Source of the DNA: Enterobacteria phage CHB7
DNA: 64,000 nt
Sequence record: MK562504.1
Strand: one strand, 5' to 3'
Shown in pieces: positions 34,937 to 62,185 of this stretch. The position numbers and the translations under genes are program-made. The notes beneath the pieces were generated by a model. It ran no database searches and was not told where the DNA came from. It was given only the letters and a program-made list of their open reading frames with translations. Within the stretch, counting starts at the first letter, position 1; each line of letters opens with the position of its first letter.

Positions 34937-35012
34937 TTGGAGCGTCGAAAGGGAGTTGAACCCTCATAATCCTGTTTTGCAGACAGGTACATAGCCATTT
35001 CTGTCATCGACG
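34937..35012 (-). tRNA. tRNA-Cys (GCA)
   Basis: Hand-folded cloverleaf; loop CUGCAAA; encoded CCA; U73. Confidence 0.7.
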
Positions 35013-35019
35013 CATTAAA

Positions 35020-35113
35020 TTGGAGGAAGATACCAGACTTGAACTGGTACGCCGATTTCTCGGTTACTGACAGTTTAGCAAACTGTTCCCTTACCTTTTA
35101 GGGTTAATCTTCC
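35020..35113 (-). tRNA. tRNA-Ser (GCU), long variable arm
   Basis: Anticodon stem ACAGT/ACTGT, loop TTGCTAA; variable-arm hairpin CCGA-GAAA-TCGG. Confidence 0.7.
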
Positions 35114-35115
35114 AA

Positions 35116-35850
35116 TTATTTGTTCAAGGCATCCTTCATTTCTGGAGTTGCGATTGAATCAATCACACCAGTTTTACAAGCATCATCAAACCAGTCTGGT
35201 AAGACACCTGCAAGGAAACCATTAATATTAGTTTTCAAGTAATCAGCAATTAACGCTGCTTCATCTGCAATCATCTTAGTGACCTCATTAGCATATGCAG
35301 TAATCTTAGCAATGCCCTGATTAATCGCTGTAACGGCTTGTGAGGCTAAGGAAGAGATAGTGTCTAGTCCTTTATCAATTGCATCTTTTAAGTCGCTTAG
35401 AACGCCATTCACAGTGTCTATGGAGGTGTTAATCAAATCCATAGCTTGTTGACCGTACTCTGTAGCTACTCCCATGATTCCACTAAACGGTGTACAACCA
35501 ACTTGCTCTCCTGCTGCACCCATAACGTTAGAGTAACCTTTAGCTACCTGCATACGTGATGAGAACTCATCTACAGATTTCTGACCGTATTGAGTCAGTG
35601 TGTTAGTTGTCGTTGTAGTGCTTCCAAGGCTCGTTGAGAAGCTACTTAACAAGGCTGTAGTCAAACCAGCAGCAATAAGTTTATCTTTTACTGTAGGGTC
35701 TGATACCGAGCTAATAGAGCTTACTAATGAAGTAGAAGCGGCAATTGTGCCACCAAGGATTGCTGCACCAGTAATAAGAGGGTTAGAAAACCCGTTACCG
35801 GATTTCAGGAGATTAAAAATCTCTTTACCTTGTTCTGTCATCTCTTTCAT
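35116..35850 (-). CDS. hypothetical protein
   Basis: 244 aa Ser/Thr/Ala-rich protein inside the tRNA region. Confidence 0.5.
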   Translation of the reverse strand: MKEMTEQGKEIFNLLKSGNGFSNPLITGAAILGGTIAASTSLVSSISSVSDPTVKDKLIAAGLTTALLSSFSTSLGSTTTTTNTLTQYGQKSVDEFSSRMQVAKGYSNVMGAAGEQVGCTPFSGIMGVATEYGQQAMDLINTSIDTVNGVLSDLKDAIDKGLDTISSLASQAVTAINQGIAKITAYANEVTKMIADEAALIADYLKTNINGFLAGVLPDWFDDACKTGVIDSIATPEMKDALNK

Positions 35851-35867
35851 TAAGCACCTTTTGAAAT

Positions 35868-35944
35868 TGGCGGGTTAGTGGGATTTGAACCCTCTTCTCA
35901 TGTTTTTCAGACATGCGCTTTAACCATATAAGCTACTTAACCCA
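35868..35944 (-). tRNA. tRNA-Phe (GAA)
   Basis: Loop CUGAAAA; 3' end ambiguous by about 2 nt. Confidence 0.6.
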
Positions 35945-35951
35945 TTAAATT

Positions 35952-36028
35952 TGGGGTGACCTACGGGAATCGAACCCGTATAGACCATGTTCACAGCATG
36001 GGTCATTATCCATTTATGATAAGGCCAC
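35952..36028 (-). tRNA. tRNA-His (GUG)
   Basis: Loop CUGUGAA; C73; perfect T stem. Confidence 0.65.
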
Positions 36029-36059
36029 ATGTAAGGACTCTCGTAAGAACCCTTAGAAG

Positions 36060-36135
36060 TGGCAGCAGCGTAAGGATTTGAACCTTAATCTTTCAGCTTC
36101 AGAGGCTGGAGCATTGCCAGTTATGCTACACTGCT
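36060..36135 (-). tRNA. tRNA-Gln (CUG)
   Basis: Loop CUCUGAA; G73. Confidence 0.55.
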
Positions 36136-36142
36136 ATTAATT

Positions 36143-36221
36143 TGGTACTCCATATCGGATTCGAACCGATACATAACACAGATTTTAAGTCTGGCCTCTC
36201 TGCCAATTGGAGTAATGGAGC
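36143..36221 (-). tRNA. tRNA with Leu anticodon UAA, standard length (short variable region)
   Basis: Loop CUUAAAA; A73; about 79 nt, no long variable arm. Confidence 0.5.
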
Positions 36222-36223
36222 AT

Positions 36224-36299
36224 TGGCGGGGGATGTTGGAATTGAACCAACTTCTTCGATTTCAAAGACCGAGGTTTTAACCTTGTAAACTAATCCCCT
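36224..36299 (-). tRNA. tRNA-Gln (UUG)
   Basis: Stem TCGGT/ATCGA, loop CUUUGAA; G73. Confidence 0.6.
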
Positions 36300-36307
36300 T
36301 TAAATCT

Positions 36308-36865
36308 TTACTTTCTTAGTGGATGAATAAAGAATGCCAACATAATTCTTTCCCTTGAAAATGCTCTTTCTTCTGGGACAACACTTTTAAGTTTCCAACC
36401 AACATAAATTCTCCAGTAAAATTGTTTACCAAAGATTTTAATTGACGGGATAAAAGCGAATAAACCCCAAGCATTACTGTTCCACATCAGGAGATAACCT
36501 GTCTGATTATCTTCAGGGTTAGAACTTACGTTGATATTACCTTTCCACTTAGTAACATCTTTTACATCTCTTCCTAATACATGGTAAGAGAAGTTATAAG
36601 CTTTGTTTCTCCAGAGCCATCCAACTCTCTGCATATAAACACCGAGCTTACCAATCTTTCGAATCTTAGCCCATCGTTCAACGTGACCTTTGTCACCATC
36701 AATTGGGTTGTCATAAGTTTCCATCCATCTGAATCCAAAAGGTAAGTGACCTTTCTTCTCACTGTAGAATGGAACCACAAATGGTGCTAAGATTACTGCT
36801 AAGATTGCTGCAAATGGCTCTAGCAAAGCTAGGAAAATCCATGAAGCATACTTCAAATATCTCAT
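36308..36865 (-). CDS. membrane protein, hypothetical
   Basis: ATG 36863-36865 with AGAGG RBS; N-terminal hydrophobic segment; track ORF extends upstream from TTG into tRNA-Arg. Confidence 0.5.
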   Translation of the reverse strand: MRYLKYASWIFLALLEPFAAILAVILAPFVVPFYSEKKGHLPFGFRWMETYDNPIDGDKGHVERWAKIRKIGKLGVYMQRVGWLWRNKAYNFSYHVLGRDVKDVTKWKGNINVSSNPEDNQTGYLLMWNSNAWGLFAFIPSIKIFGKQFYWRIYVGWKLKSVVPEERAFSRERIMLAFFIHPLRK

Positions 36866-36885
36866 TTTAAATAGCCTCTTTAAAT

Positions 36886-36962
36886 TGGTGCAGAATAAGG
36901 GATTCGAACCCCTAACAAACAACTTCGTAGGTTGCTGCTCTATCCGTTTGAACTAATTCTGC
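36886..36962 (-). tRNA. tRNA-Arg (ACG)
   Basis: Loop CUACGAA; perfect 7 bp acceptor GCAGAAT/ATTCTGC. Confidence 0.65.
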
Positions 36963-37124
36963 AATGTTCTTTTGAGATTCCTGTCTAGCTCTCTTCTTAT
37001 CTCTTCTGAGAAAGCGTCTACGATGGTCTGTACGCCATTTGTAGTAATCTTCCTCACCAGCGTGAGAAGCACAGCAACCACAACTTGCAATTTCAACTTT
37101 ACCGTGTCTACCATAAGGCTTCAT
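36912..37124 (-). CDS. small basic Cys-containing ORF overlapping tRNA-Arg (doubtful)
   Basis: ATG with AGGAG RBS right after the preceding tRNA; last 51 nt overlap tRNA-Arg. Confidence 0.3.
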   Translation of the reverse strand: MKPYGRHGKVEIASCGCCASHAGEEDYYKWRTDHRRRFLRRDKKRARQESQKNIAELVQTDRAATYEVVC

Positions 37125-37140
37125 AGGAATCTCCTAAAAT

Positions 37141-37218
37141 TGGTGTTCCAAGACGGATTCGAACCGTCACTAATACAAGGTTTGAGCTTGCATCCTCTGC
37201 CAATTGGGATACTGGAAC
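37141..37218 (-). tRNA. tRNA with Leu anticodon CAA, standard length (short variable region)
   Basis: Stem GCAAG/CTTGT, loop CUCAAAC; A73; D-arm similar to the UAA tRNA. Confidence 0.5.
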
Positions 37219-37220
37219 AT

Positions 37221-37295
37221 TGGTACTCGCTGAAGGACTTGAACCTTCTTCACCAACTTGTAAGGATGGGGCTTTACCATATAAACTAAGCGAGT
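37221..37295 (-). tRNA. tRNA-Val (UAC)
   Basis: Loop CUUACAA; A73. Confidence 0.6.
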
Positions 37296-37391
37296 ATGAA
37301 AAGAGGTCTGAAGTTGTGCCGCTAACTCAACTCCGTGGAATTTGTTACGGTCTTCAGTTGACTCAAGCGGTCTTTCACTCGACCTCTGAAA

Positions 37392-37468
37392 TGGTGCTGC
37401 TCACAGGACTCGAACCTGCATTTCCATCCTTACAAGGGATGTGTAATAGCCAATTATACGAAAGCAGC
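37392..37468 (-). tRNA. tRNA-Thr (UGU)
   Basis: Stem CATCC/GGATG, loop CUUGUAA; A73. Confidence 0.65.
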
Positions 37469-37474
37469 ATTGTT

Positions 37475-37549
37475 TGGAGCATCCAGAGGGAATCGAACCC
37501 TCAACCTCAGTTTGGAAGACTGTAATTTTCCCGTTTAAACTATGGATGC
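37475..37549 (-). tRNA. tRNA-Gly (UCC)
   Basis: Loop CUUCCAA; U73; perfect T stem. Confidence 0.65.
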
Positions 37550-37555
37550 ACTAAT

Positions 37556-37631
37556 TGGTGGAGAAGCAGGGAATTGAACCCTGTACTTAAGTTTGCAAAA
37601 CTTATGTTTTAACCATGTAAACTACATCCCC
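37556..37631 (-). tRNA. tRNA-Ala (UGC)
   Basis: Stem TAAGT/ACTTA, loop UUUGCAA; G3-U70 wobble pair; A73. Confidence 0.7.
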
Positions 37632-37637
37632 AATGTT

Positions 37638-37713
37638 TGGTACAGGTGGAGGGAATTGAACCCATCGTCTTACTGATTAAGAGTCAGCCGCATAACCATT
37701 TTGCTACACCTGC
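37638..37713 (-). tRNA. tRNA-Lys (CUU)
   Basis: Loop CUCUUAA; A73. Confidence 0.55.
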
Positions 37714-37720
37714 ATTAATT

Positions 37721-37798
37721 TGGTAGGAGACAAGGGATTCGAACCCTCAAACACCAACTTCTAAGGATGGTAGGTTTACCAATTACCGTCAATCTCCC
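37721..37798 (-). tRNA. tRNA with Leu anticodon UAG, standard length (short variable region)
   Basis: Loop CUUAGAA; A73; about 78 nt. Confidence 0.45.
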
Positions 37799-37866
37799 AT
37801 TAAATCTTTGTAGAGAACTGCTAAGACGCCAAAGCAACAATGGTATCAAATGCCTTAACAATTCTC

Positions 37867-37887
37867 TAAAAAGACCTAACTGGTCTT
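37867..37887 (-). terminator. hairpin downstream of nuclease gene (weak terminator)
   Basis: AAAGACC-loop-GGTCTTT followed by U-rich tail on the minus strand. Confidence 0.35.
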
Positions 37888-38026
37888 TGCATAGTCTTGT
37901 TTAATCCGGTGACTAGAACCTTTGGAGAGCTTGATATTATCTCTTCTCCGTGACACCTACTAGGTGCTTTGTTGTGCGTGTACGACAATACACGAGGGAA
38001 ACCGAACGCTGTACCAGAGCGTGGGC

Positions 38027-38368
38027 TTAAATCTTTAAGCTAAGTTCAGTCTTGGACTTGACATCTTTAGCTTTGTAGATGACGACTTTATCAAGTGGTT
38101 CAATGTAAACAGCTAAGTAATCAACTTGAGAGTTATCAAAATTCATTATTCTATTTTCATTCTTGTTAGAACGAACTCTTTTCAGTTGCACTCTCCAAAG
38201 TTCACCTCTTTTGACTGATGTTGATTTTACCTCAACAGTCTCAATCAAACCATCTTTGTGAACTAGAAAGTCATACTTTGCATTATCTGTAGCTGGTGAA
38301 TACACTTCATAACCTCTTTTGAGGAAAGCTAATTGTGTAGCAATTTCACCTACTGAACCTTTCTTCAT
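38027..38368 (-). CDS. PD-(D/E)XK nuclease-like protein embedded in tRNA cluster
   Basis: ATG 38366-38368 with AAGGTGGTGA RBS; YDFLVHKDGLIETVEVKS resembles a D...ExK nuclease core. Confidence 0.5.
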   Translation of the reverse strand: MKKGSVGEIATQLAFLKRGYEVYSPATDNAKYDFLVHKDGLIETVEVKSTSVKRGELWRVQLKRVRSNKNENRIMNFDNSQVDYLAVYIEPLDKVVIYKAKDVKSKTELSLKI

Positions 38369-38390
38369 AATCACCACCTTAAAATTATTT

Positions 38391-38477
38391 TGGCAGAGAG
38401 TGCAGGAGTTGAACCCGTACCGTTTCCAGCAGCACCAGTTTTCAAGGCTGGTTGGTCTCCGTTGACCGCCACTCTCT
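38391..38477 (-). tRNA. tRNA-Ser (UGA), long variable arm
   Basis: Loop CUUGAAA; perfect acceptor AGAGAGT/ACTCTCT; G73; 87 nt. Confidence 0.65.
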
Positions 38478-38490
38478 CCGAAACAATCTT

Positions 38491-38573
38491 TGGCATGGGA
38501 CGGAGGAATCGAACCCCTTTGAGTAAGTTTTGGAGGCTTACGCACATGCCTTAGTGTCTTAACATCGTCCCAT
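38491..38573 (-). tRNA. tRNA-Trp (CCA), atypical 83 nt with enlarged D region
   Basis: Anticodon hairpin GTAAG-(C)CUCCAAA(A)-CTTAC; perfect acceptor; G73; extra nt between acceptor and D stem. Confidence 0.45.
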
Positions 38574-38715
38574 ATATTATTTCGAAGCTTACCGTATTAT
38601 CACAACACTGTAAAGCCCCTTCTCAGATTATTTACATGTTCTGGAAAACATGAGATACAGACCACCTCCCTACAGGAAGACCCGCTTAGGTCGTCTAAGT
38701 AATCTGCTAACTATT

Positions 38716-38743
38716 TGGTAGCCAAGGTAGGAGTCGAACCTAC
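38716..38743 (-). pseudogene. tRNA 3' fragment (CCA + acceptor + T arm only)
   Basis: TGG-T-AGCCAAG followed by T arm GTAGG-AGTCGAA-CCTAC; no matching 5' acceptor strand found within 100 nt. Confidence 0.4.
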
Positions 38744-38842
38744 TTACTCTCGAAGGTAGCTAACCTTCAGTAACTTTCCGACTTTCGTACATCTGTTAAC
38801 ATGTATTCAGATGGCTTACTAGTGTTGTCTTGACCATTAAAC

Positions 38843-38919
38843 TGGCACACCCTACAGGACTCGAACCTGTAACTCAGTGCTTAGAAGGCACTTGCTCTAT
38901 CCAATTGAACTAAGGGTGC
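38843..38919 (-). tRNA. tRNA-Arg (UCU)
   Basis: Loop CUUCUAA; G73. Confidence 0.65.
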
Positions 38920-39170
38920 ATTCTTATCTTTAAAGGCTCTCTTAGAAAACCCTTAAAGATGCCCACATTATTAATCATACCGTGGGCGAGTACGCCAAAT
39001 TCTTTGATGAGGGGTTGGAAGACCTCACTGGTGTTTAGCCTATTAAGCTACTGCCAGAAAAACATTATCGTTTGCATTTATTTTAGTTTGCAAAAATAGA
39101 CGCTACGCTAACGAAAACTAAGGTTACTATAAAGTGGTCACATCTGAATGTCAACAACTTTATCGAATTT

Positions 39171-39246
39171 GGTAGTGGTAGCAGGAATCGAACCTGCGAT
39201 GTTCGGTTATCAGCCGAGTGTTATGACCGTCTTAACTATACCACCA
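39171..39246 (-). tRNA. tRNA-Ile (GAU)
   Basis: Loop CUGAUAA; A73. Confidence 0.6.
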
Positions 39247-39248
39247 TT

Positions 39249-39325
39249 GGAGGTTCAGATGGGATTCGAACCCACATTCATAGGGCTTATGAAACCCTTG
39301 CATTACCTTATCTGCGACTGAACCA
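39249..39325 (-). tRNA. tRNA with CAU anticodon (Met or Ile2)
   Basis: Stem AGGGT/GCCCT, loop UUCAUAA; U73. Confidence 0.55.
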
Positions 39326-39403
39326 TAATAAGTTGCCCTTTGGAGAAGAACTATTGAGTGGGTGTTTCCAGCCGCGCAGGTGTTCTTCAGTTAAGGGCTA
39401 ATT

Positions 39404-39479
39404 TGGTAGGAGTGGAGGGATTCGAACCCTTCGCCTGTCAGATTAAAAGTCTGCCGCATCACCATTCTGCTACACTCCC
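39404..39479 (-). tRNA. tRNA-Lys (UUU)
   Basis: Loop CUUUUAA; A73. Confidence 0.6.
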
Positions 39480-39735
39480 ATTGAATCATCTTTGCAGTAA
39501 CCTACGCAAACCTTGCTAAAGGGTTTGTAGAGTCATTTCCTATTAAGCTAATCTAGAATCATGCTAAGGAAATTCATCGGCACTCATGGGACGACATTTA
39601 GCTCCATAAGTCACTGCAAAGAGGATTACCAGACCGTTGTTTATCTTAAGTGCTCCCATTACACCAACACGCCGTAACGTGTGAAGGAATCGAACCTTCG
39701 CCTTTTCTTTACCAGAGAAATAGATTGTTTTATAC

Positions 39736-39765
39736 TTGCTGTAAACGGTCTTCTGTAAATTTGTT
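39736..39765. repeat. inter-tRNA spacer repeat (TGCTGTAAACGGTCTTCTG family), copy 1
   Basis: Same about 20 nt word recurs at 40281-40306 and 40440-40466; CCAGACC word recurs near 39639, 39787, 40238, 40395. Confidence 0.6.
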
Positions 39766-39906
39766 GAGCCAGACCAAGTTTTAAATTTTTCAAAATTAAA
39801 TTGGCTTGAAATTTTTTAAGTTGGCTTGCTGAATTTGGTCTTCTGCTCCTTTAAAGAACACTCGTAAGAACTCTTTAAGGGAGGGGCTAAAAAGCCCTCT
39901 CAAATT

Positions 39907-39984
39907 TGGCGGTTACGAAGGGATTCGAACCCTCATCATCTCCCGTGACAGGGGAGTATTTTAACCAGATTAAACTACATAACC
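39907..39984 (-). tRNA. tRNA-Asp (GUC)
   Basis: Perfect stem CTCCC/GGGAG, loop CUGUCAC; G73. Confidence 0.7.
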
Positions 39985-39990
39985 TTTATT

Positions 39991-40078
39991 TGGTGCGCCG
40001 TGAAGGAGTCGAACCTACCGAGTCATAATGACAAGTGATTTACAGTCACCACCGCTTCCATCTACGGGATAACGACGC
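39991..40078 (-). tRNA. tRNA-Tyr (GUA), long variable arm
   Basis: Loop CUGUAAA; 88 nt; A73. Confidence 0.6.
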
Positions 40079-40148
40079 ATTTTATTCCATTCAGGCTAAG
40101 GACTTGCACCTTACAAATCGGTGAGCATTACGCTTCTCTCCCAAATCT

Positions 40149-40225
40149 TGGCGGTGAGTTAGGGATTCGAACCCTATGCCATTCGGTTAACAGCCGACCG
40201 CACATGCCTTATGTGCTTCCTCACC
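40149..40225 (-). tRNA. tRNA-Asn (GUU)
   Basis: Loop CUGUUAA; G73; perfect T stem. Confidence 0.65.
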
Positions 40226-40306
40226 ATGTTTAGTATTGCCAGACCGTATCTTTTCATTTTTCCTATAAAAATTTTTGAGATTGCTGTAAACGGTCTTCTG
40301 CAAATT

Positions 40307-40383
40307 TGGAGGCGGGTGCAGGAGTCGAACCTGCCGATACCATGCTAATGAGACATGTGAGACGCCCTTTCTCTATACCCGCG
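40307..40383 (-). tRNA. tRNA with CAU anticodon, unpaired 1-72 (C-C)
   Basis: Loop CUCAUUA; first acceptor pair is a C-C mismatch; U73. Confidence 0.5.
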
Positions 40384-40466
40384 AACTTTTATGACCAGAC
40401 CAAACTTTTAAGTTTTCTATGCGCGAAAAGTAAAGTTGTTTGCTGTACTTGGTCTTCTGTCAAATT

Positions 40467-40541
40467 TGGAGTCGTAGACGGGATTCGAACCCGCGAGCAA
40501 CTGATTGAAGGTCAGGTGGCTAACCATTTGCCTTCTACGAC
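40467..40541 (-). tRNA. tRNA-Glu (UUC), tentative
   Basis: Stem CTGA/TCAG, loop CCUUCAA (C at position 33 is unusual); perfect acceptor. Confidence 0.45.
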
Positions 40542-40548
40542 ATTAATT

Positions 40549-40625
40549 TGGTCTCCGTTGAAGGGATTGAACCTTCGACCTCACCGCCCCAAACGGCGCA
40601 CTCTACCAAACTGAGCTAAACGGAG
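40549..40625 (-). tRNA. tRNA-Pro (UGG)
   Basis: Loop UUUGGGG; C1-G72; A73; perfect acceptor. Confidence 0.7.
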
Positions 40626-40791: not shown

Positions 40792-42207
40792 TTACCAGAT
40801 GTAACGGTCAATCATTACTGCTTTGAGCATTACGCTGATTGGGTCAAACTTCTCACCACCAAGCAGAGCTTTTAAAGTGGCTGGAGAGAACCCTGATACC
40901 ATTGCTACCCCATTATCCTTAACAGACACTTCGCAAGTACCATTACGGTTTGCTAAGTACCAGAATACCAGTTGTGGCATTTCGTATCCAGCTTTTTCAT
41001 ACTTACTGCGAATTGCTTCGAAGTTTGTATGGCCATCTGCACCGTCAACCTGATTGAACTCCATATCAGAGAAGATAATAAGCTTACTTGGCATTGCTGC
41101 CTGAGTCAAGCCATTTCTTACACCGATTTCAAGAATACGGTCAAATGCTGCTTGCAGGTTTGTTGAACCATACTCAACCTTGTTCATTACCTGACGCATA
41201 CGAGTCTGCAAATCACCACTCAGAGTAATAAAGTGAGGTCTTGTGGAGTAAACCATTAACTCATCTTTAAAGCACCCTGTATTGCGTTCTGAGACGTATA
41301 ACGCCAAAGACAGGCCAATATCAAGAGCAGTTACAGAACCAAATGTCTGCCAAGTCATAGACGCTGATACATCTGACATACACAGAATGTTTTCACCTTC
41401 TGCCATCCAGTTTGGTAATGCTTTCCACTGTTCGTTTGCAACACTTGCTTTACCATGATTAACGGACTTCAGAATATCGTATGGGTACACAGCACCAGCA
41501 TTAATCTTGGCCTCACCTTTGGATAAAGCTTCAACGTAAGCTGCATAACGTTCACCGTCTTTCTTGCTGAACAGCTTTTGATAACGTGCAGCAGCCAGTG
41601 AAGGAATCTTGCTGTAGTCAATCTCACCAAAGTTATTTGTAGAGATTTTCTGTTCAACGGTATCAGACAAAGCTGATAACAGTGTACGGTATTCTTTCTC
41701 ACTCAGGCTTGCAAACTTACAGAAACGTTTTACAAACTGTTTGTGTCGTGGTTTTACTCGTGGTAACCACTTAGCCGCTAAACCTGCTGTATCAGGGTCT
41801 AACAAGGCTGCTTCTAAATGCTTGAAAGCATCTGTCTCATAACGAGTACCTACGAAGATTTTGAAGTCATCGAAACGACCTAATTCAGAAATCTTATCCA
41901 TGATACGAAGAACTTGGAAAGAATCCAGAATGTTATCTTCGATTGCTTGTAAGAGGACAGTTCGGAAAGCTTTACGCTCACCCATACCTTCTCGTACATC
42001 TCGCATATGCAGTAAAATACGAACTGCTACATCAACATCCTCACGCAAAGCTTTGTAGAACAAGTCTGGGAGAATCTCTACATTGCCACGGCTTGAGCCA
42101 GCAGCTTTATAGAAGTCTACCAAGGCAGACATTGATGATGTATGGTTAACAGCACCATTTTCAGTTCGCCCTGCATGGAGGTGCGAATGTTTAAATAAAT
42201 CGCTCAT
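40792..42207 (-). CDS. vWA-domain protein with MIDAS motif (DUF2828/TROVE-like?)
   Basis: 471 aa; DxSxS MIDAS motif in LCMSDVSASM; N-terminal RTENGAV segment; purine-rich RBS. Confidence 0.6.
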   Translation of the reverse strand: MSDLFKHSHLHAGRTENGAVNHTSSMSALVDFYKAAGSSRGNVEILPDLFYKALREDVDVAVRILLHMRDVREGMGERKAFRTVLLQAIEDNILDSFQVLRIMDKISELGRFDDFKIFVGTRYETDAFKHLEAALLDPDTAGLAAKWLPRVKPRHKQFVKRFCKFASLSEKEYRTLLSALSDTVEQKISTNNFGEIDYSKIPSLAAARYQKLFSKKDGERYAAYVEALSKGEAKINAGAVYPYDILKSVNHGKASVANEQWKALPNWMAEGENILCMSDVSASMTWQTFGSVTALDIGLSLALYVSERNTGCFKDELMVYSTRPHFITLSGDLQTRMRQVMNKVEYGSTNLQAAFDRILEIGVRNGLTQAAMPSKLIIFSDMEFNQVDGADGHTNFEAIRSKYEKAGYEMPQLVFWYLANRNGTCEVSVKDNGVAMVSGFSPATLKALLGGEKFDPISVMLKAVMIDRYIW

Positions 42208-60183: not shown

Positions 60184-60453
60184 CTACTTCCTCGTTTTGA
60201 GAACTGCCATAATTTCTTTGGTATCTTCTAAGAACCATGTGTAGTGATTCTCTTTGATTTCTGGATGAGTGTCAATCTTTAATTTGCAATCTCTTCCAGT
60301 ATCTTTCAACTGCGTTGTGATACCCTTCATAAAGATATGACACATCACATCATCCATAACCATCGGCATAAAGTCAATTCGCATGTAAGTATCTTTTGGT
60401 CTTGGAAGAAGTAAATAACCTTCTGTATAGAACAGTTCTGTCTCTTGACTCAT
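60184..60453 (-). CDS. hypothetical protein
   Basis: 89 aa ORF. Confidence 0.45.
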   Translation of the reverse strand: MSQETELFYTEGYLLLPRPKDTYMRIDFMPMVMDDVMCHIFMKGITTQLKDTGRDCKLKIDTHPEIKENHYTWFLEDTKEIMAVLKTRK

Positions 60454-60719
60454 TGCTGCTTATTCCCTAACAAAATCATATCAATCAAATTATTGGCTTT
60501 CATCGTACATTGATAGTACCCATCACGATAAAATTCAAGGGCTTGTGACAAGTCTGTGCCTGTATTACCCTTGACAACATAGCGTGCTTCTTCTTGAGTG
60601 TACTTATCACTTTCACTTACTTGGGAGTTTTTGAACGTAGAGTTCACTTTGTTCATTGAACACCCTGACATAAGTATCAGTAGCACAAATGTTATAAAAC
60701 TCTGGCTTAGTCTTTTCAT
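60450..60719 (-). CDS. lipoprotein (possible o-spanin)
   Basis: Signal peptide with lipobox LMSGC; AAGAGG RBS; start lies inside the upstream membrane-protein gene in a different frame. Confidence 0.5.
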   Translation of the reverse strand: MKRLSQSFITFVLLILMSGCSMNKVNSTFKNSQVSESDKYTQEEARYVVKGNTGTDLSQALEFYRDGYYQCTMKANNLIDMILLGNKQQ

Positions 60720-60960
60720 ATGTCAATACCTCTTTTGTGTGTTTGTTTTTAGCAAGCACATCTTTCAAATCATTTTTGTAATTGGAGCTAAGATTTGCTA
60801 AACCTTCTTGGTAAGCATCCTTAGCAACGCTTATAAGCTTCTGGTTAGTCAACTCTGTCTGAGTAACTTGGTAATCCTTGTAAGAATAACCTCCCCAGAC
60901 ACCTACACCAATCAGAAAAACAACTATGAAAGCTGCTTGACAGAACTCTTTAAATGTCAT
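60613..60960 (-). CDS. membrane-anchored periplasmic protein (possible i-spanin)
   Basis: N-terminal TM helix AAFIVVFLIGVGVWGG; strong AGGAGA RBS. Confidence 0.5.
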   Translation of the reverse strand: MTFKEFCQAAFIVVFLIGVGVWGGYSYKDYQVTQTELTNQKLISVAKDAYQEGLANLSSNYKNDLKDVLAKNKHTKEVLTYEKTKPEFYNICATDTYVRVFNEQSELYVQKLPSK

Positions 60961-60978
60961 TTGTTAATCTCCTAAAAC

Positions 60979-61001
60979 GAAAAAGGCTCCCGAAGGAGCC
61001 T
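60979..61001 (-). terminator. rho-independent terminator
   Basis: Minus-sense AGGCTCC-TTCG-GGAGCCT followed by TTTTTCGTTTT. Confidence 0.65.
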
Positions 61002-61012
61002 GTATCATAACC

Positions 61013-61477
61013 TTAACCGAGGACTTTAGCAAGGACATTTGCAGCCATCGTTGAAGCTTTTGCAGCAGCAGCTACGCCAGCCTTGATAGTGCTATCCTTA
61101 ATGGCAGATACCGTTGCAGCATCAGTAAAGAGATACGTGGTAGTTTGTGAACCACTTGTAAAGGAAAGCATAAGAGCAGTTTCCAGATTGAAAGAACGGT
61201 ACGGAGCACCGGACTGTACAATTCCTTTAGCACCTAACTCTGAAGCCATACCCATATCATAGATGGTCATCAGGTTTTCTTTATGTGCTGTAGTAGAACC
61301 GACACCTTTAACGTGTTTTGAAACGTTCAGCAGAGCACGATATTCACGGATATCACCATCAGCTTTTACGTTGACAGCACGAAAGATTTTGCCATCAAAG
61401 TTACTTTTAATGATATCACGAACAACCTGTGATTTGTTTGCTGATGCGTCGATAGCTACTGTAATAATGTTTTGCAT
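61013..61477 (-). CDS. hypothetical protein
   Basis: 154 aa ORF. Confidence 0.5.
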   Translation of the reverse strand: MQNIITVAIDASANKSQVVRDIIKSNFDGKIFRAVNVKADGDIREYRALLNVSKHVKGVGSTTAHKENLMTIYDMGMASELGAKGIVQSGAPYRSFNLETALMLSFTSGSQTTTYLFTDAATVSAIKDSTIKAGVAAAAKASTMAANVLAKVLG

Positions 61478-61489
61478 GATTTCTCTCTC

Positions 61490-62185
61490 TTAGTGTTTGA
61501 TAAGCATTGTGTTAATGTCTGGAAGGATTCGTTTAACCTTCTCAACATTCCTTACTGTATCTTCTATAAAGCATACTACCTCATAGTACGGAAGAATGCA
61601 AGACTGAATCATACGAACTTTCAAACTTTCTGCACTGATTCTGTTTGAACCAAAACCACGCATAAAAAGCATGTAGTCAGTCACAATATGTTTGTCAATA
61701 AACAAATGAGTTGGTACACGTTGAGACTCACCACGGGCAGTTAAAACACCAATTGCAGCACTCTTATGAATGCCTGAGATGATGTTAAAGATGTACGTAG
61801 GTTGAGCATCAACTGACTCAATCAAGTTTGTATACTGTGATAAAGTGCCATCTTCCAGATACGTTGAATTTGTTGGCTTATCAAACTTAGTGAGAACACC
61901 ATCAATATCTGTTAAAACCATTGGCTTTTTCATATCAAGGTCTTTTGCAACCAAGATTAAGCTGTCACGTTTAACGGCTACTGACTTACCTGTTTGAAGG
62001 TCTGTACAGAGAACTGTTTCAGCAGGTGAATGAAAATCTTTGAAGTCACACTCAACAGCCCTTGCAGTATCTGCAAAATCCTCTTTCATAAGGTCTGTCC
62101 AGCTTGCAGCACTGATATCTATAGCCAGAGGATTGATATCGTAAGCGTGACAAAATACCTTATCCAATTGTTTTAATTCGCTCAT
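61490..62185 (-). CDS. HAD-family phosphatase-like protein
   Basis: MVLTDIDGVLTKF matches HAD motif I (DxDG); ATG at 62183-62185 preferred over track TTG start. Confidence 0.5.
   Translation of the reverse strand: MSELKQLDKVFCHAYDINPLAIDISAASWTDLMKEDFADTARAVECDFKDFHSPAETVLCTDLQTGKSVAVKRDSLILVAKDLDMKKPMVLTDIDGVLTKFDKPTNSTYLEDGTLSQYTNLIESVDAQPTYIFNIISGIHKSAAIGVLTARGESQRVPTHLFIDKHIVTDYMLFMRGFGSNRISAESLKVRMIQSCILPYYEVVCFIEDTVRNVEKVKRILPDINTMLIKH

Follow-up and report, generated by a model that had tools for sequence, protein, structure and literature searches.

The question raised by this locus is whether transfer RNAs (tRNAs) that carry leucine (Leu) anticodons but lack the long variable arm of type II tRNA-Leu can be genuine Leu tRNAs of a phage. 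Three genes of this kind, with anticodons UAA, CAA and UAG, are found in Enterobacteria phage CHB7 (sequence record MK562504.1; "the window" denotes the whole 64,000-nucleotide (nt) stretch analyzed here), and we consider it quite probable that they encode functional phage type I tRNA-Leu isoacceptors, which would be charged by the leucyl-tRNA synthetase (LeuRS) of the host and used for over-used Leu codons. ARAGORN and Rfam both called the genes at exactly the coordinates and with the anticodons proposed by a first reading of the sequence (hereafter, the original prediction); all three genes are on the minus strand, a detail absent from that reading.

tRNA-Leu(UAA) is located at 36143..36221 (79 nt including CCA; anticodon at 36185-36187; Rfam tRNA score 47.5 bits, E = 4.6e-8), tRNA-Leu(CAA) at 37141..37218 (78 nt including CCA; anticodon at 37182-37184; 44.0 bits, E = 4.1e-7) and tRNA-Leu(UAG) at 37721..37798 (78 nt including CCA; anticodon at 37761-37763; 40.0 bits, E = 5.5e-6). 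All three score above the gathering score of the Rfam tRNA family RF00005 (29 bits) and were called by ARAGORN. Among the 23 Rfam tRNA matches in the gene cluster to which they belong, the UAA tRNA ranks 18th/19th, tied with the phenylalanine (Phe) tRNA and just above the serine (Ser) and asparagine tRNAs, while the CAA and UAG tRNAs rank 21st and 22nd, i.e., they are the lowest two full-length matches, with only a partial tRNA fragment below them.

All three tRNAs show a 7-bp acceptor stem, A73, an encoded CCA and the T loop UUCGAAU. With the variable region parsed as positions 44-48, tRNA-Leu(UAA) has a 3-bp D stem, the D loop CAAUUGGCAGA and a 7-nt variable loop (GUUAUGU), and tRNA-Leu(CAA) has a 3-bp D stem, the D loop CAAUUGGCAGA and a 6-nt variable loop (AUUAGU), both variable loops with a terminal U48; tRNA-Leu(UAG) has the D loop AAUUGGUAA and a 5-nt variable loop (UGUUU). 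The proposed variable region of 6 to 7 nt thus held for the UAA and CAA tRNAs but not for the UAG tRNA, whereas A73 in all three tRNAs and a D loop shared by two of them were borne out by the ARAGORN drawings and by a position-by-position parse, which found CAATTGGCAGA to be identical in the UAA and CAA tRNAs. The lack of any long variable arm was also upheld. Type II tRNA-Leu has a variable arm of more than 10 nt folded into a stem-loop, while the regions found here are 7, 6 and 5 nt long and unpaired; a Leu anticodon combined with a loop of approx. 5 nt that keeps nt 48 characterizes type I tRNA-Leu, and the three tRNAs have loops of 5 to 7 nt ending in U48.

The UAA and CAA tRNAs combine a Leu anticodon and A73 with a 3-bp D stem and an 11-nt D loop containing A14, A15, G18G19 and A20a; the UAG tRNA has these loop bases as well, but on a stem of shifted register. 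The extra nucleotide of this tRNA is located in the connector/D-arm region, outside the variable loop, and comparison with tRNA-Leu1 of phages T5 and BF23 identified a one-base T insertion after position 13 as well as an A24-to-C change. The best D stem that can be formed consists of G-C, G-C and U-A pairs, with a C-U mismatch beneath it and a 3-nt connector (U-G-A). Despite this shifted stem, A14, A15, G18, G19 and A20a are retained. The UAG tRNA is the least canonical of the three, and our confidence that it would be charged efficiently is somewhat lower.

For Leu identity in E. coli, a 2023 review lists the A15-U48 Levitt pair together with the D-loop bases G18G19 and A20a as essential and the contacts G18:U55, G19:C56 and U54:A58 as important, while the anticodon and the long arm are dispensable for E. 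coli LeuRS, with arm-deleted variants of E. coli tRNA-Leu remaining active (PMC9976931). All three phage tRNAs carry A14 (with U8), A15-U48, G18G19 and A20a; A73 is likewise present in all three, as well as in 42 of 42 aligned relatives. The bases involved in D/T-loop contacts are kept too (T loop UUCGAAU in each), from which the tertiary pairs themselves are predicted. When the E. coli K-12 genes leuZ (UAA), leuX (CAA), leuW (UAG) and leuT (CAG) were used as host references, phage and host Leu tRNAs were found to have in common A73, U8/A14, A15-U48, the T-loop contacts, the anticodons UAA, CAA and UAG, and a D arm with a 3-bp stem and an 11-nt loop of the form N-A14-A15-Y-Y-G18-G19-Y-A20a-N-A22 (in the host, N-A-A-Y-Y-G-G-Y-A-N-A). 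The D loop reads G/A-A-A-U-Y-G-G-U-A-G-A in the host and C-A-A-U-U-G-G-C-A-G-A in the phage UAA and CAA tRNAs, in both cases together with a 3-bp D stem, U48 and A73. The host tRNAs differ in length (85-87 nt), in having a variable arm of 13-15 nt that forms a stem-loop, in the T loop (UUCAAGU or UUCGAGU) and in the core, which is G9, G12-C23 and G13/A13 as compared to A9, C12-G23 and C13 in the phage UAA and CAA tRNAs. In 18 loci, the Leu D-arm signature was present in 26 of 28 distinct Leu tRNAs as compared to 7 of 222 distinct non-Leu tRNAs; six of these seven lacked A73 and the seventh was a long-arm tRNA-Ser.

Compact Leu tRNAs are widely distributed among phages. A search of a phage collection found homologs of the UAG tRNA in T5-like phages (approx. 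84% identity) and in Seunavirus (approx. 81%), homologs of the CAA tRNA in the Erwinia Kolesnikvirus group, and remoter, near gap-free matches in phages of Aeromonas, Rhodococcus, Myxococcus, Xanthomonas, Enterococcus and Mycobacterium. ARAGORN analyses of homologous phage loci identified Leu tRNAs of 74-78 nt, some of them beside normal ones of 83-86 nt, while the Ser and tyrosine (Tyr) tRNAs were long-armed. We also searched IMG/VR with a pattern defined by loop positions only (AATTGGYANA for the D loop, YTNA within the anticodon loop, and GTTCGA placed at compact spacing). This pattern matched at least 120 stretches, and the loci listed held 169 compact Leu tRNAs (156 distinct), with A73 in 162 and U48 in 168 of the 169; in the same loci, a long arm was present in 103 of 104 Ser tRNAs and in all 39 Tyr tRNAs. 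As the pattern leaves the third anticodon base free (N-A-N), it provides an independent test of Leu decoding: 136 of the 138 listed pattern matches had Leu anticodons, although Met, Ile, Val or Phe tRNAs made up 247 of the 472 N-A-N tRNAs assigned at these loci. A D arm of the LeuRS type is thus coupled to Leu decoding. With a wider gap in the pattern, which allowed for long as well as compact tRNAs, a compact match was present in 40 of the first 120 stretches, the other 80 having long matches only; among the viral stretches sampled for a Leu-type D loop, the compact share can thus be roughly estimated at one third. Other phages, among them T4-like and jumbo phages of enterobacteria, carry Leu tRNAs that are long-armed and leuZ-like.

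Compact Leu tRNAs are also found outside phages. A stricter, compact-only pattern, applied to one genome per prokaryotic species, gave at least 121 matches, all of those listed with Leu anticodons, and ARAGORN called 117 compact Leu tRNAs among them. The listed matches were mostly lone chromosomal genes in Actinomycetota, with others in large tRNA arrays. Near-identical compact Leu(UAA) genes were observed across Nocardia (e.g., locus L224), Rhodococcus, Gordonia, Mycobacterium and Arthrobacter, compact Leu(CAA) genes in Corynebacterium (e.g., locus L282) and Bifidobacterium, and Leu(UAG) genes in Amycolatopsis. The actinobacterial tRNAs have the D arm GCCCAATTGGCAGAGGC and a 5-nt variable loop ending in AGU or GUU; they resemble the UAA and CAA tRNAs of the window in A9, in the D arm (NCCCAATTGGCAGAGGN) and in A73, but differ in being GC-rich, lone, conserved across genera, mostly without a full encoded CCA and located outside phage clusters. 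In 5,426 complete genomes of E. coli, nothing matched either the CAA or the UAG tRNA. The view that bacterial tRNA-Leu is type II thus holds for the host but not as a universal rule, and, contrary to what the original prediction had implied, compact tRNA-Leu is no oddity of this phage; it is common in phages and in Actinomycetota chromosomes, and a type I tRNA-Leu from Streptomyces has been published.

The secondary structure of the compact tRNAs was assessed by covariation, using pattern matches selected without regard to any stem base other than G53. Standard pairs occupied 89.5% of the cells in the acceptor stem, 95.8% in the D stem, 96.8% in the anticodon stem and 99.0% in the T stem, as compared to 50-66% when the partners were shuffled, and each stem position showed 3 to 6 distinct standard pair types, except for the G53-C61 pair fixed by the pattern. 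In this set, A73 was present in 125 and U48 in 124 of 126 tRNAs. RNAalifold, run de novo on 42 diverse tRNAs of the class, those of the window among them, returned a cloverleaf with a 3-bp D stem and a short unpaired variable region, with compensatory changes at all 20 of the 20 consensus pairs; A14, G18, G19, A20a, U33, A35, U48 and A73 were invariant in this alignment.

To place the origin of these genes, 394 distinct Leu tRNAs of canonical layout, compact and long, were compared with one another after removal of the variable region. The nearest neighbour of a compact tRNA was also compact in 231 of 260 cases (66% by chance), and compact tRNAs were 57% identical to the long Leu tRNA at the same locus as compared to 85% identical to the best compact one elsewhere. 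This identity pattern led us to reject an origin by recent loss of the arm from a long-armed gene at the same locus. Nucleotides of the tertiary core discriminate between the two groups, with A9, C12-G23, C13 and C20 in compact and G9, G12-C23, G13 and U20 in long tRNAs. The UAA and CAA tRNAs of the window belong to the A9/C12-G23/C13 subfamily, while the UAG tRNA belongs to a T5-like subfamily with G9, G12-C23 and G13, the core of which resembles that of a type II tRNA minus the arm. Of the paralogous family originally proposed for the three genes, the UAA and CAA tRNAs remain as members of one compact subfamily, which also yielded a chimera in Salmonella phage Si3, but the UAG tRNA falls outside it. 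The Si3 chimera (L339, approx. 2499-2577) is a compact tRNA-Leu with the 5' end (acceptor strand and first D-stem bases) of the CAA gene and the remainder, including the UAA anticodon, of the UAA gene; the switch from one gene to the other occurs at, or immediately ahead of, the D-loop stretch that the two have in common, and the genes that lay between the paralogs have been lost.

The window represents a Felix O1-like myovirus. Between 36000 and 38000, its identity to Escherichia phages SUSP2 and phiSUSP1 amounts to 98-99% and that to approx. 220 Felix O1-like phages (Ounavirinae) to 90-95%, and each of the three genes is conserved in approx. 250 or more genomes, the UAA gene being 100% identical in 215 phage records and the CAA gene at least 99% identical in 159 records. 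All three are annotated as tRNA-Leu in already deposited public records, including the Felix O1 reference (NC_005282), and identical genes bear this label in over 200 phage records; among public tRNAscan-type annotations, scores of 50-53 bits are given for phiEa104, and the record of Shigella phage Silverhawkium labels all three genes Leu. Differences between alleles preserve pairing. In Leu(CAA), U2-A71 is replaced by C2-G71 in Silverhawkium, a compensated change. When Leu(UAG) of the window is compared with its Felix O1 allele, three double changes, all in the anticodon stem, are fully compensated (27-43, C-G to U-A; 29-41, A-U to U-A; 31-39, C-G to G-C), and the 30-40 pair changes from U-U to C-G. 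In Mooglevirus, the Leu(UAG) slot is filled by a different compact Leu(UAG). In Silverhawkium (L340, 1923-1999), the tRNA-Leu(UAG) in this slot, upstream of the lysine tRNA gene Lys(CUU), is compact and belongs to the A9/C12-G23/C13 subfamily instead of the T5-like one; the gene has thus been replaced without loss of decoding capacity. The 147-kb record of Staphylococcus phage SA1 (GU169904.1) also holds, at 60278-62103, Leu(UAG) and Leu(UAA) genes that match the Felix O1 type at 100% identity, which suggests that this record is a mixed or chimeric assembly.

Codon usage is consistent with a role of these tRNAs in translation. In 67 open reading frames (ORFs) of the window, UUA, UUG and CUA represented 23%, 18% and 9% of the Leu codons, respectively, as compared to 11%, 11% and 2% in 50 kb of E. 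coli DNA processed identically; together these codons accounted for 50% of Leu codons in the window and 24% in E. coli. The share of CUG fell from 49% in the E. coli sample to 17% in the window, and CUA was enriched 2.7-fold per 1000 codons in the window. The enrichment of UUA, UUG and CUA that was to be looked for in the phage genes is thus present.

Evidence from experiments exists for the closest characterized relative of the UAG tRNA, i.e., T5/BF23 tRNA-Leu1 (AJ604530, 3881-3957), a compact, 77-nt, CUA-decoding tRNA-Leu(UAG) that is approx. 84% identical to the window tRNA. The two are alike in the T arm, the type of variable loop, the U30-U40 mismatch, A73, the encoded CCA and the location in a phage cluster. 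They differ in the D stem, which in T5 is canonical (3 bp; A-U, U-A, G-C) with an 11-nt loop as compared to the shifted stem of the Felix-type gene, and the suppressor evidence pertains to the BF23/T5 form rather than to the Felix-type tRNA. According to the BF23 record, changing the anticodon of the 77-nt tRNA-Leu1 to CUA "converts this tRNA into effective amber suppressor". It follows that E. coli charges and uses this homolog whatever its anticodon, as would be expected of a LeuRS substrate. From the identity elements that are kept and from the suppressor activity of the BF23 homolog, we infer that E. coli LeuRS would leucylate the three phage tRNAs. The tRNAs of T5 were reportedly first detected through charging by E. 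coli enzymes.

Retention of the long arm by other tRNAs of the same phages was also assessed; Ser and Tyr tRNAs keep the arm in this phage and in 65 of 110 viral loci with compact Leu tRNAs. Bacterial tyrosyl-tRNA synthetase makes contact with the long arm. E. coli LeuRS needs no arm, which explains why, in this phage and across viral loci, Leu tRNAs may lack the arm that Ser and Tyr tRNAs retain.

We thus propose that the three genes would be transcribed within a polycistronic tRNA cluster to yield mature tRNAs with genome-encoded CCA, which would then be leucylated, most likely by the LeuRS of the host (E. coli/Salmonella), an enzyme that is blind to the anticodon and does not need the long arm. 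The enzyme would read A73, A14, A15-U48, G18G19 and A20a as positioned in a D loop with a 3-bp stem, and the D/T-loop contacts, all of which are retained. The UAA and CAA tRNAs would decode UUA and UUG, while the UAG tRNA would decode CUA and probably other CUN codons, and the tRNAs would thereby supply decoding to an AT-rich phage that uses these Leu codons far more than its host. Charging by the host LeuRS and use in translation are most likely, given the genes, folds, identity elements, covariation, conservation, codon bias and wide distribution of the class described above. The suggestion that compact Leu tRNAs serve UUA, UUG and CUA is well supported by the LeuRS identity set, the coupling of D arm and anticodon, covariation, codon enrichment and the T5/BF23 suppressor.

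A number of observations weigh against this proposal. The anticodon stem of tRNA-Leu(UAA) is topped by a C27-U43 mismatch, and the UAG tRNA combines a non-canonical D-arm register and a U30-U40 mismatch with the lowest Rfam score of the three (40 bits); some tRNAscan-based annotations (records MK965969 and NC_041922) flag the UAG gene as "tRNA-OTHER" and pseudo. Which amino acid the suppressor inserts is not specified in the BF23 record. Furthermore, E. coli LeuRS was unable to leucylate the type I tRNA-Leu(CAA) of Streptomyces coelicolor and has been described as charging type II tRNA-Leu only (PMC6614811). The S. coelicolor tRNA is leucylated by the single LeuRS of that organism, ScoLeuRS (Fan et al. 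2019, PMC6614811), for which A14-U8 is important and the minimum loop is five nt including position 48; its variable loop is A44-C45-A46-G47-C48, thus without U48 (PMC6614811). It resembles the phage tRNAs in its short (5-nt) variable loop and coexists with type II Leu tRNAs, but it carries C48, and A73 is not an identity element for ScoLeuRS, whereas the phage tRNAs carry U48 and A73, which fits the E. coli rules. The phage tRNAs would also act in hosts devoid of a gene of this type. The difference between C48 and U48 might explain the failure of E. coli LeuRS on the Streptomyces tRNA. Animal mitochondrial tRNA-Leu also lacks a long arm, and its identity depends on A73 and A14 (PMC9976931); mitochondrial tRNA-Leu is structurally relaxed and has its own mitochondrial LeuRS, however, while the elbow of the phage tRNAs is fully canonical (G18G19, UUCGAAU).

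Some of these observations would also be accounted for if one or more of the genes, above all Leu(UAG), were decaying pseudogenes carried along in the cluster. Such decay would agree with Rfam scores that are low for the cluster in all three tRNAs, with the anticodon-stem mismatches in the UAA and UAG tRNAs, with the aberrant D-arm register and the pseudo flags of the latter, and with the existence of real tRNA remnants in the cluster. A pseudogene call had been named beforehand as evidence that would speak against these tRNAs; ARAGORN and Rfam call all three as tRNAs, but the UAG gene is flagged as pseudo in some public records. We nevertheless regard decay as very unlikely, given conservation of each gene in approx. 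250 or more genomes, full compensation of the differences between alleles, the presence of the same U30-U40 mismatch in the BF23/T5 homolog, a working suppressor, and the replacement of the UAG gene in Mooglevirus by another compact Leu(UAG), i.e., maintenance of the decoding slot. Charging with another amino acid, or ambiguous charging, such that UUA, UUG and CUA would be recoded or mistranslated, appears highly improbable. Armless tRNAs with UAA and CAA anticodons, carrying A35, A36 and A73, partly overlap the identity set of phenylalanyl-tRNA synthetase (PheRS). PheRS identity is given in a review as G34/A35/A36 (PMC9976931). The failure of E. coli LeuRS on the Streptomyces type I tRNA-Leu (PMC6614811), the one published test across species and in tension with leucylation of the phage tRNAs by the host enzyme, also speaks for this alternative, which had been raised in the original prediction and for which no positive evidence was obtained. 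On the other hand, the LeuRS identity elements are kept and are near invariant across hundreds of compact Leu tRNAs, the Leu-type D arm occurs almost exclusively with Leu anticodons, arm-deleted variants of E. coli tRNA-Leu stay LeuRS substrates (PMC9976931), and inspection of the sequences found no G3-U70, G73, long arm or cognate anticodon for another synthetase. Phage proteins, moreover, are homologous to ordinary ones and fit Pfam families well when decoded in the standard way.

A further alternative assigns a function to the compact shape itself, which may have been selected if armless Leu tRNAs escape a host nuclease, toxin or regulator that recognizes the long arm. There are precedents for tRNAs of phages that counter host defences, e.g., a T5 tRNA-Lys rescues infection against PARIS (PMC11464382) and anticodon-loop variants of phage tRNAs act against tRNA-cleaving defences (PMC10264068), and human SLFN11 targets type II tRNAs according to a reference cited in PMC13056530. 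Selection on shape would also agree with compact Leu tRNAs being a lineage of their own rather than recent deletions, with their share of about one third of the sampled viral Leu-tRNA stretches, and with the absence of CAA- or UAG-type genes from the 5,426 complete E. coli genomes. Conversely, no bacterial defence aimed at the long arm or at tRNA-Leu specifically was found, the Ser and Tyr tRNAs of the same phages are long-armed, many phages have long-armed Leu tRNAs, at times beside compact ones, and in Actinomycetota compact Leu tRNAs are encoded by ordinary genes of the chromosome. We therefore consider selection on shape unlikely. A link to a type II-specific tRNase was rejected, as the one characterized bacterial Schlafen (2026 paper), whose targets are Lys, Met, Ala, Val, Phe and Ile tRNAs, phage-encoded ones included, shows no specificity for the arm. 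It is similarly doubtful that compact tRNA-Leu represents a distinct, horizontally spreading lineage favored by phages because loss of the arm is adaptive; if so, LeuRS enzymes considered "type II-only", including that of E. coli, would charge natural armless tRNA-Leu with U48 and A73.

Whichever of these applies, the genes were already annotated and their architecture has published precedents, so that the class is under-appreciated rather than new. It is far commoner in phages and Actinomycetota than the literature implies. Our literature search found no account of phage type I tRNA-Leu as a class; a mycobacterial genomics paper remarks in passing on a short-loop tRNA-Leu(TAG) in a tRNA cluster, and Fan et al., who state that nearly all bacterial tRNA-Leu are type II, do not mention phages (PMC6614811). 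The phage genes contradict the textbook view, repeated in PMC9976931, that tRNA-Leu is long-armed everywhere but in animal mitochondria, as well as the 2019 statement on bacterial tRNA-Leu (PMC6614811). For coliphages, the question is whether E. coli LeuRS charges natural armless tRNAs with U48 and A73, and the answer would refine the model of LeuRS recognition. Practical uses include annotation, as isotype models flag some of these genes as pseudo, and the engineering of compact Leu-accepting suppressor tRNAs.

The cluster that contains the three genes extends over 34938..40625 on the minus strand. ARAGORN called 24 tRNAs in the whole window, with glutamate (Glu) and Tyr tRNAs added at relaxed settings; CCA is encoded in every tRNA gene of the cluster, adjacent genes lie 2-8 nt apart, and small ORFs are interspersed. 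tRNA-Ser(GCU) (35021..35113, minus strand; 93 nt) and tRNA-Ser(UGA) (38391..38477, minus strand; 87 nt), both called by ARAGORN, keep the long variable arm, as does tRNA-Tyr(GUA) (39991..40078, minus strand; 88 nt), which has a weakened T stem and was found by relaxed ARAGORN. The Tyr gene was missed by default ARAGORN and is below the Rfam threshold (22.8 bits), and its annotated Felix O1 ortholog is flagged pseudo. A search for promoter-like sites showed no enrichment (11 found as compared to 11.4 expected from shuffles), and the two sites located just upstream of the first tRNA (40773-40745 and 40681-40652) are merely suggestive. tRNA-Glu(UUC) (40467-40541, minus strand) was also missed by default ARAGORN but has an Rfam score of 53.7 bits; its anticodon loop, CCUUCAA, has C33 in place of the near-universal U33, and its discriminator is U73. 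In phiSUSP1 and Felix O1 (L001, 5994-6068, and L004, 809-886), tRNA-Glu(UUC) has the acceptor 5' strand GTTCCAG in common with Leu(CAA) and a Leu-like D loop (AAATTGGTAAA and AAAATGGTAAA), but carries G73; this resemblance may reflect paralogy within the cluster.

tRNA fragments or remnants were observed between intact genes at 39683-39736, 38492-38587 and 38720-38788 (minus strand), one being a partial Rfam tRNA match (31.3 bits, model positions 9-63) and the others degenerate relaxed-ARAGORN calls, which suggests gene decay and turnover inside the cluster. A sub-threshold Rfam match to permuted transfer-messenger RNA (tmRNA; 38.6 bits as compared to a gathering score of 47 bits, E = 3e-5) at 39043-39228 (minus strand) overlaps the 3' part of tRNA-Ile and the downstream spacer, and may be due just to the tRNA-like part. 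No synthetase or tRNA-specific factor was found beside the cluster, where Pfam identified only DUF families, a PD-(D/E)XK endonuclease and terminase. Directly upstream of the cluster, 40792-42207 (minus strand) encodes a 471-amino acid protein with DUF2828 and DUF7788, the Felix O1 ortholog of which is labelled "RNA-binding protein"; a functional tie of this protein to the tRNA/RNA cluster is possible. The PD-(D/E)XK endonuclease gene is located within the cluster (38027-38389, minus strand), while the Felix O1 cluster has HNH endonuclease genes elsewhere, a pattern that fits mobile endonucleases shuffling tRNA genes.

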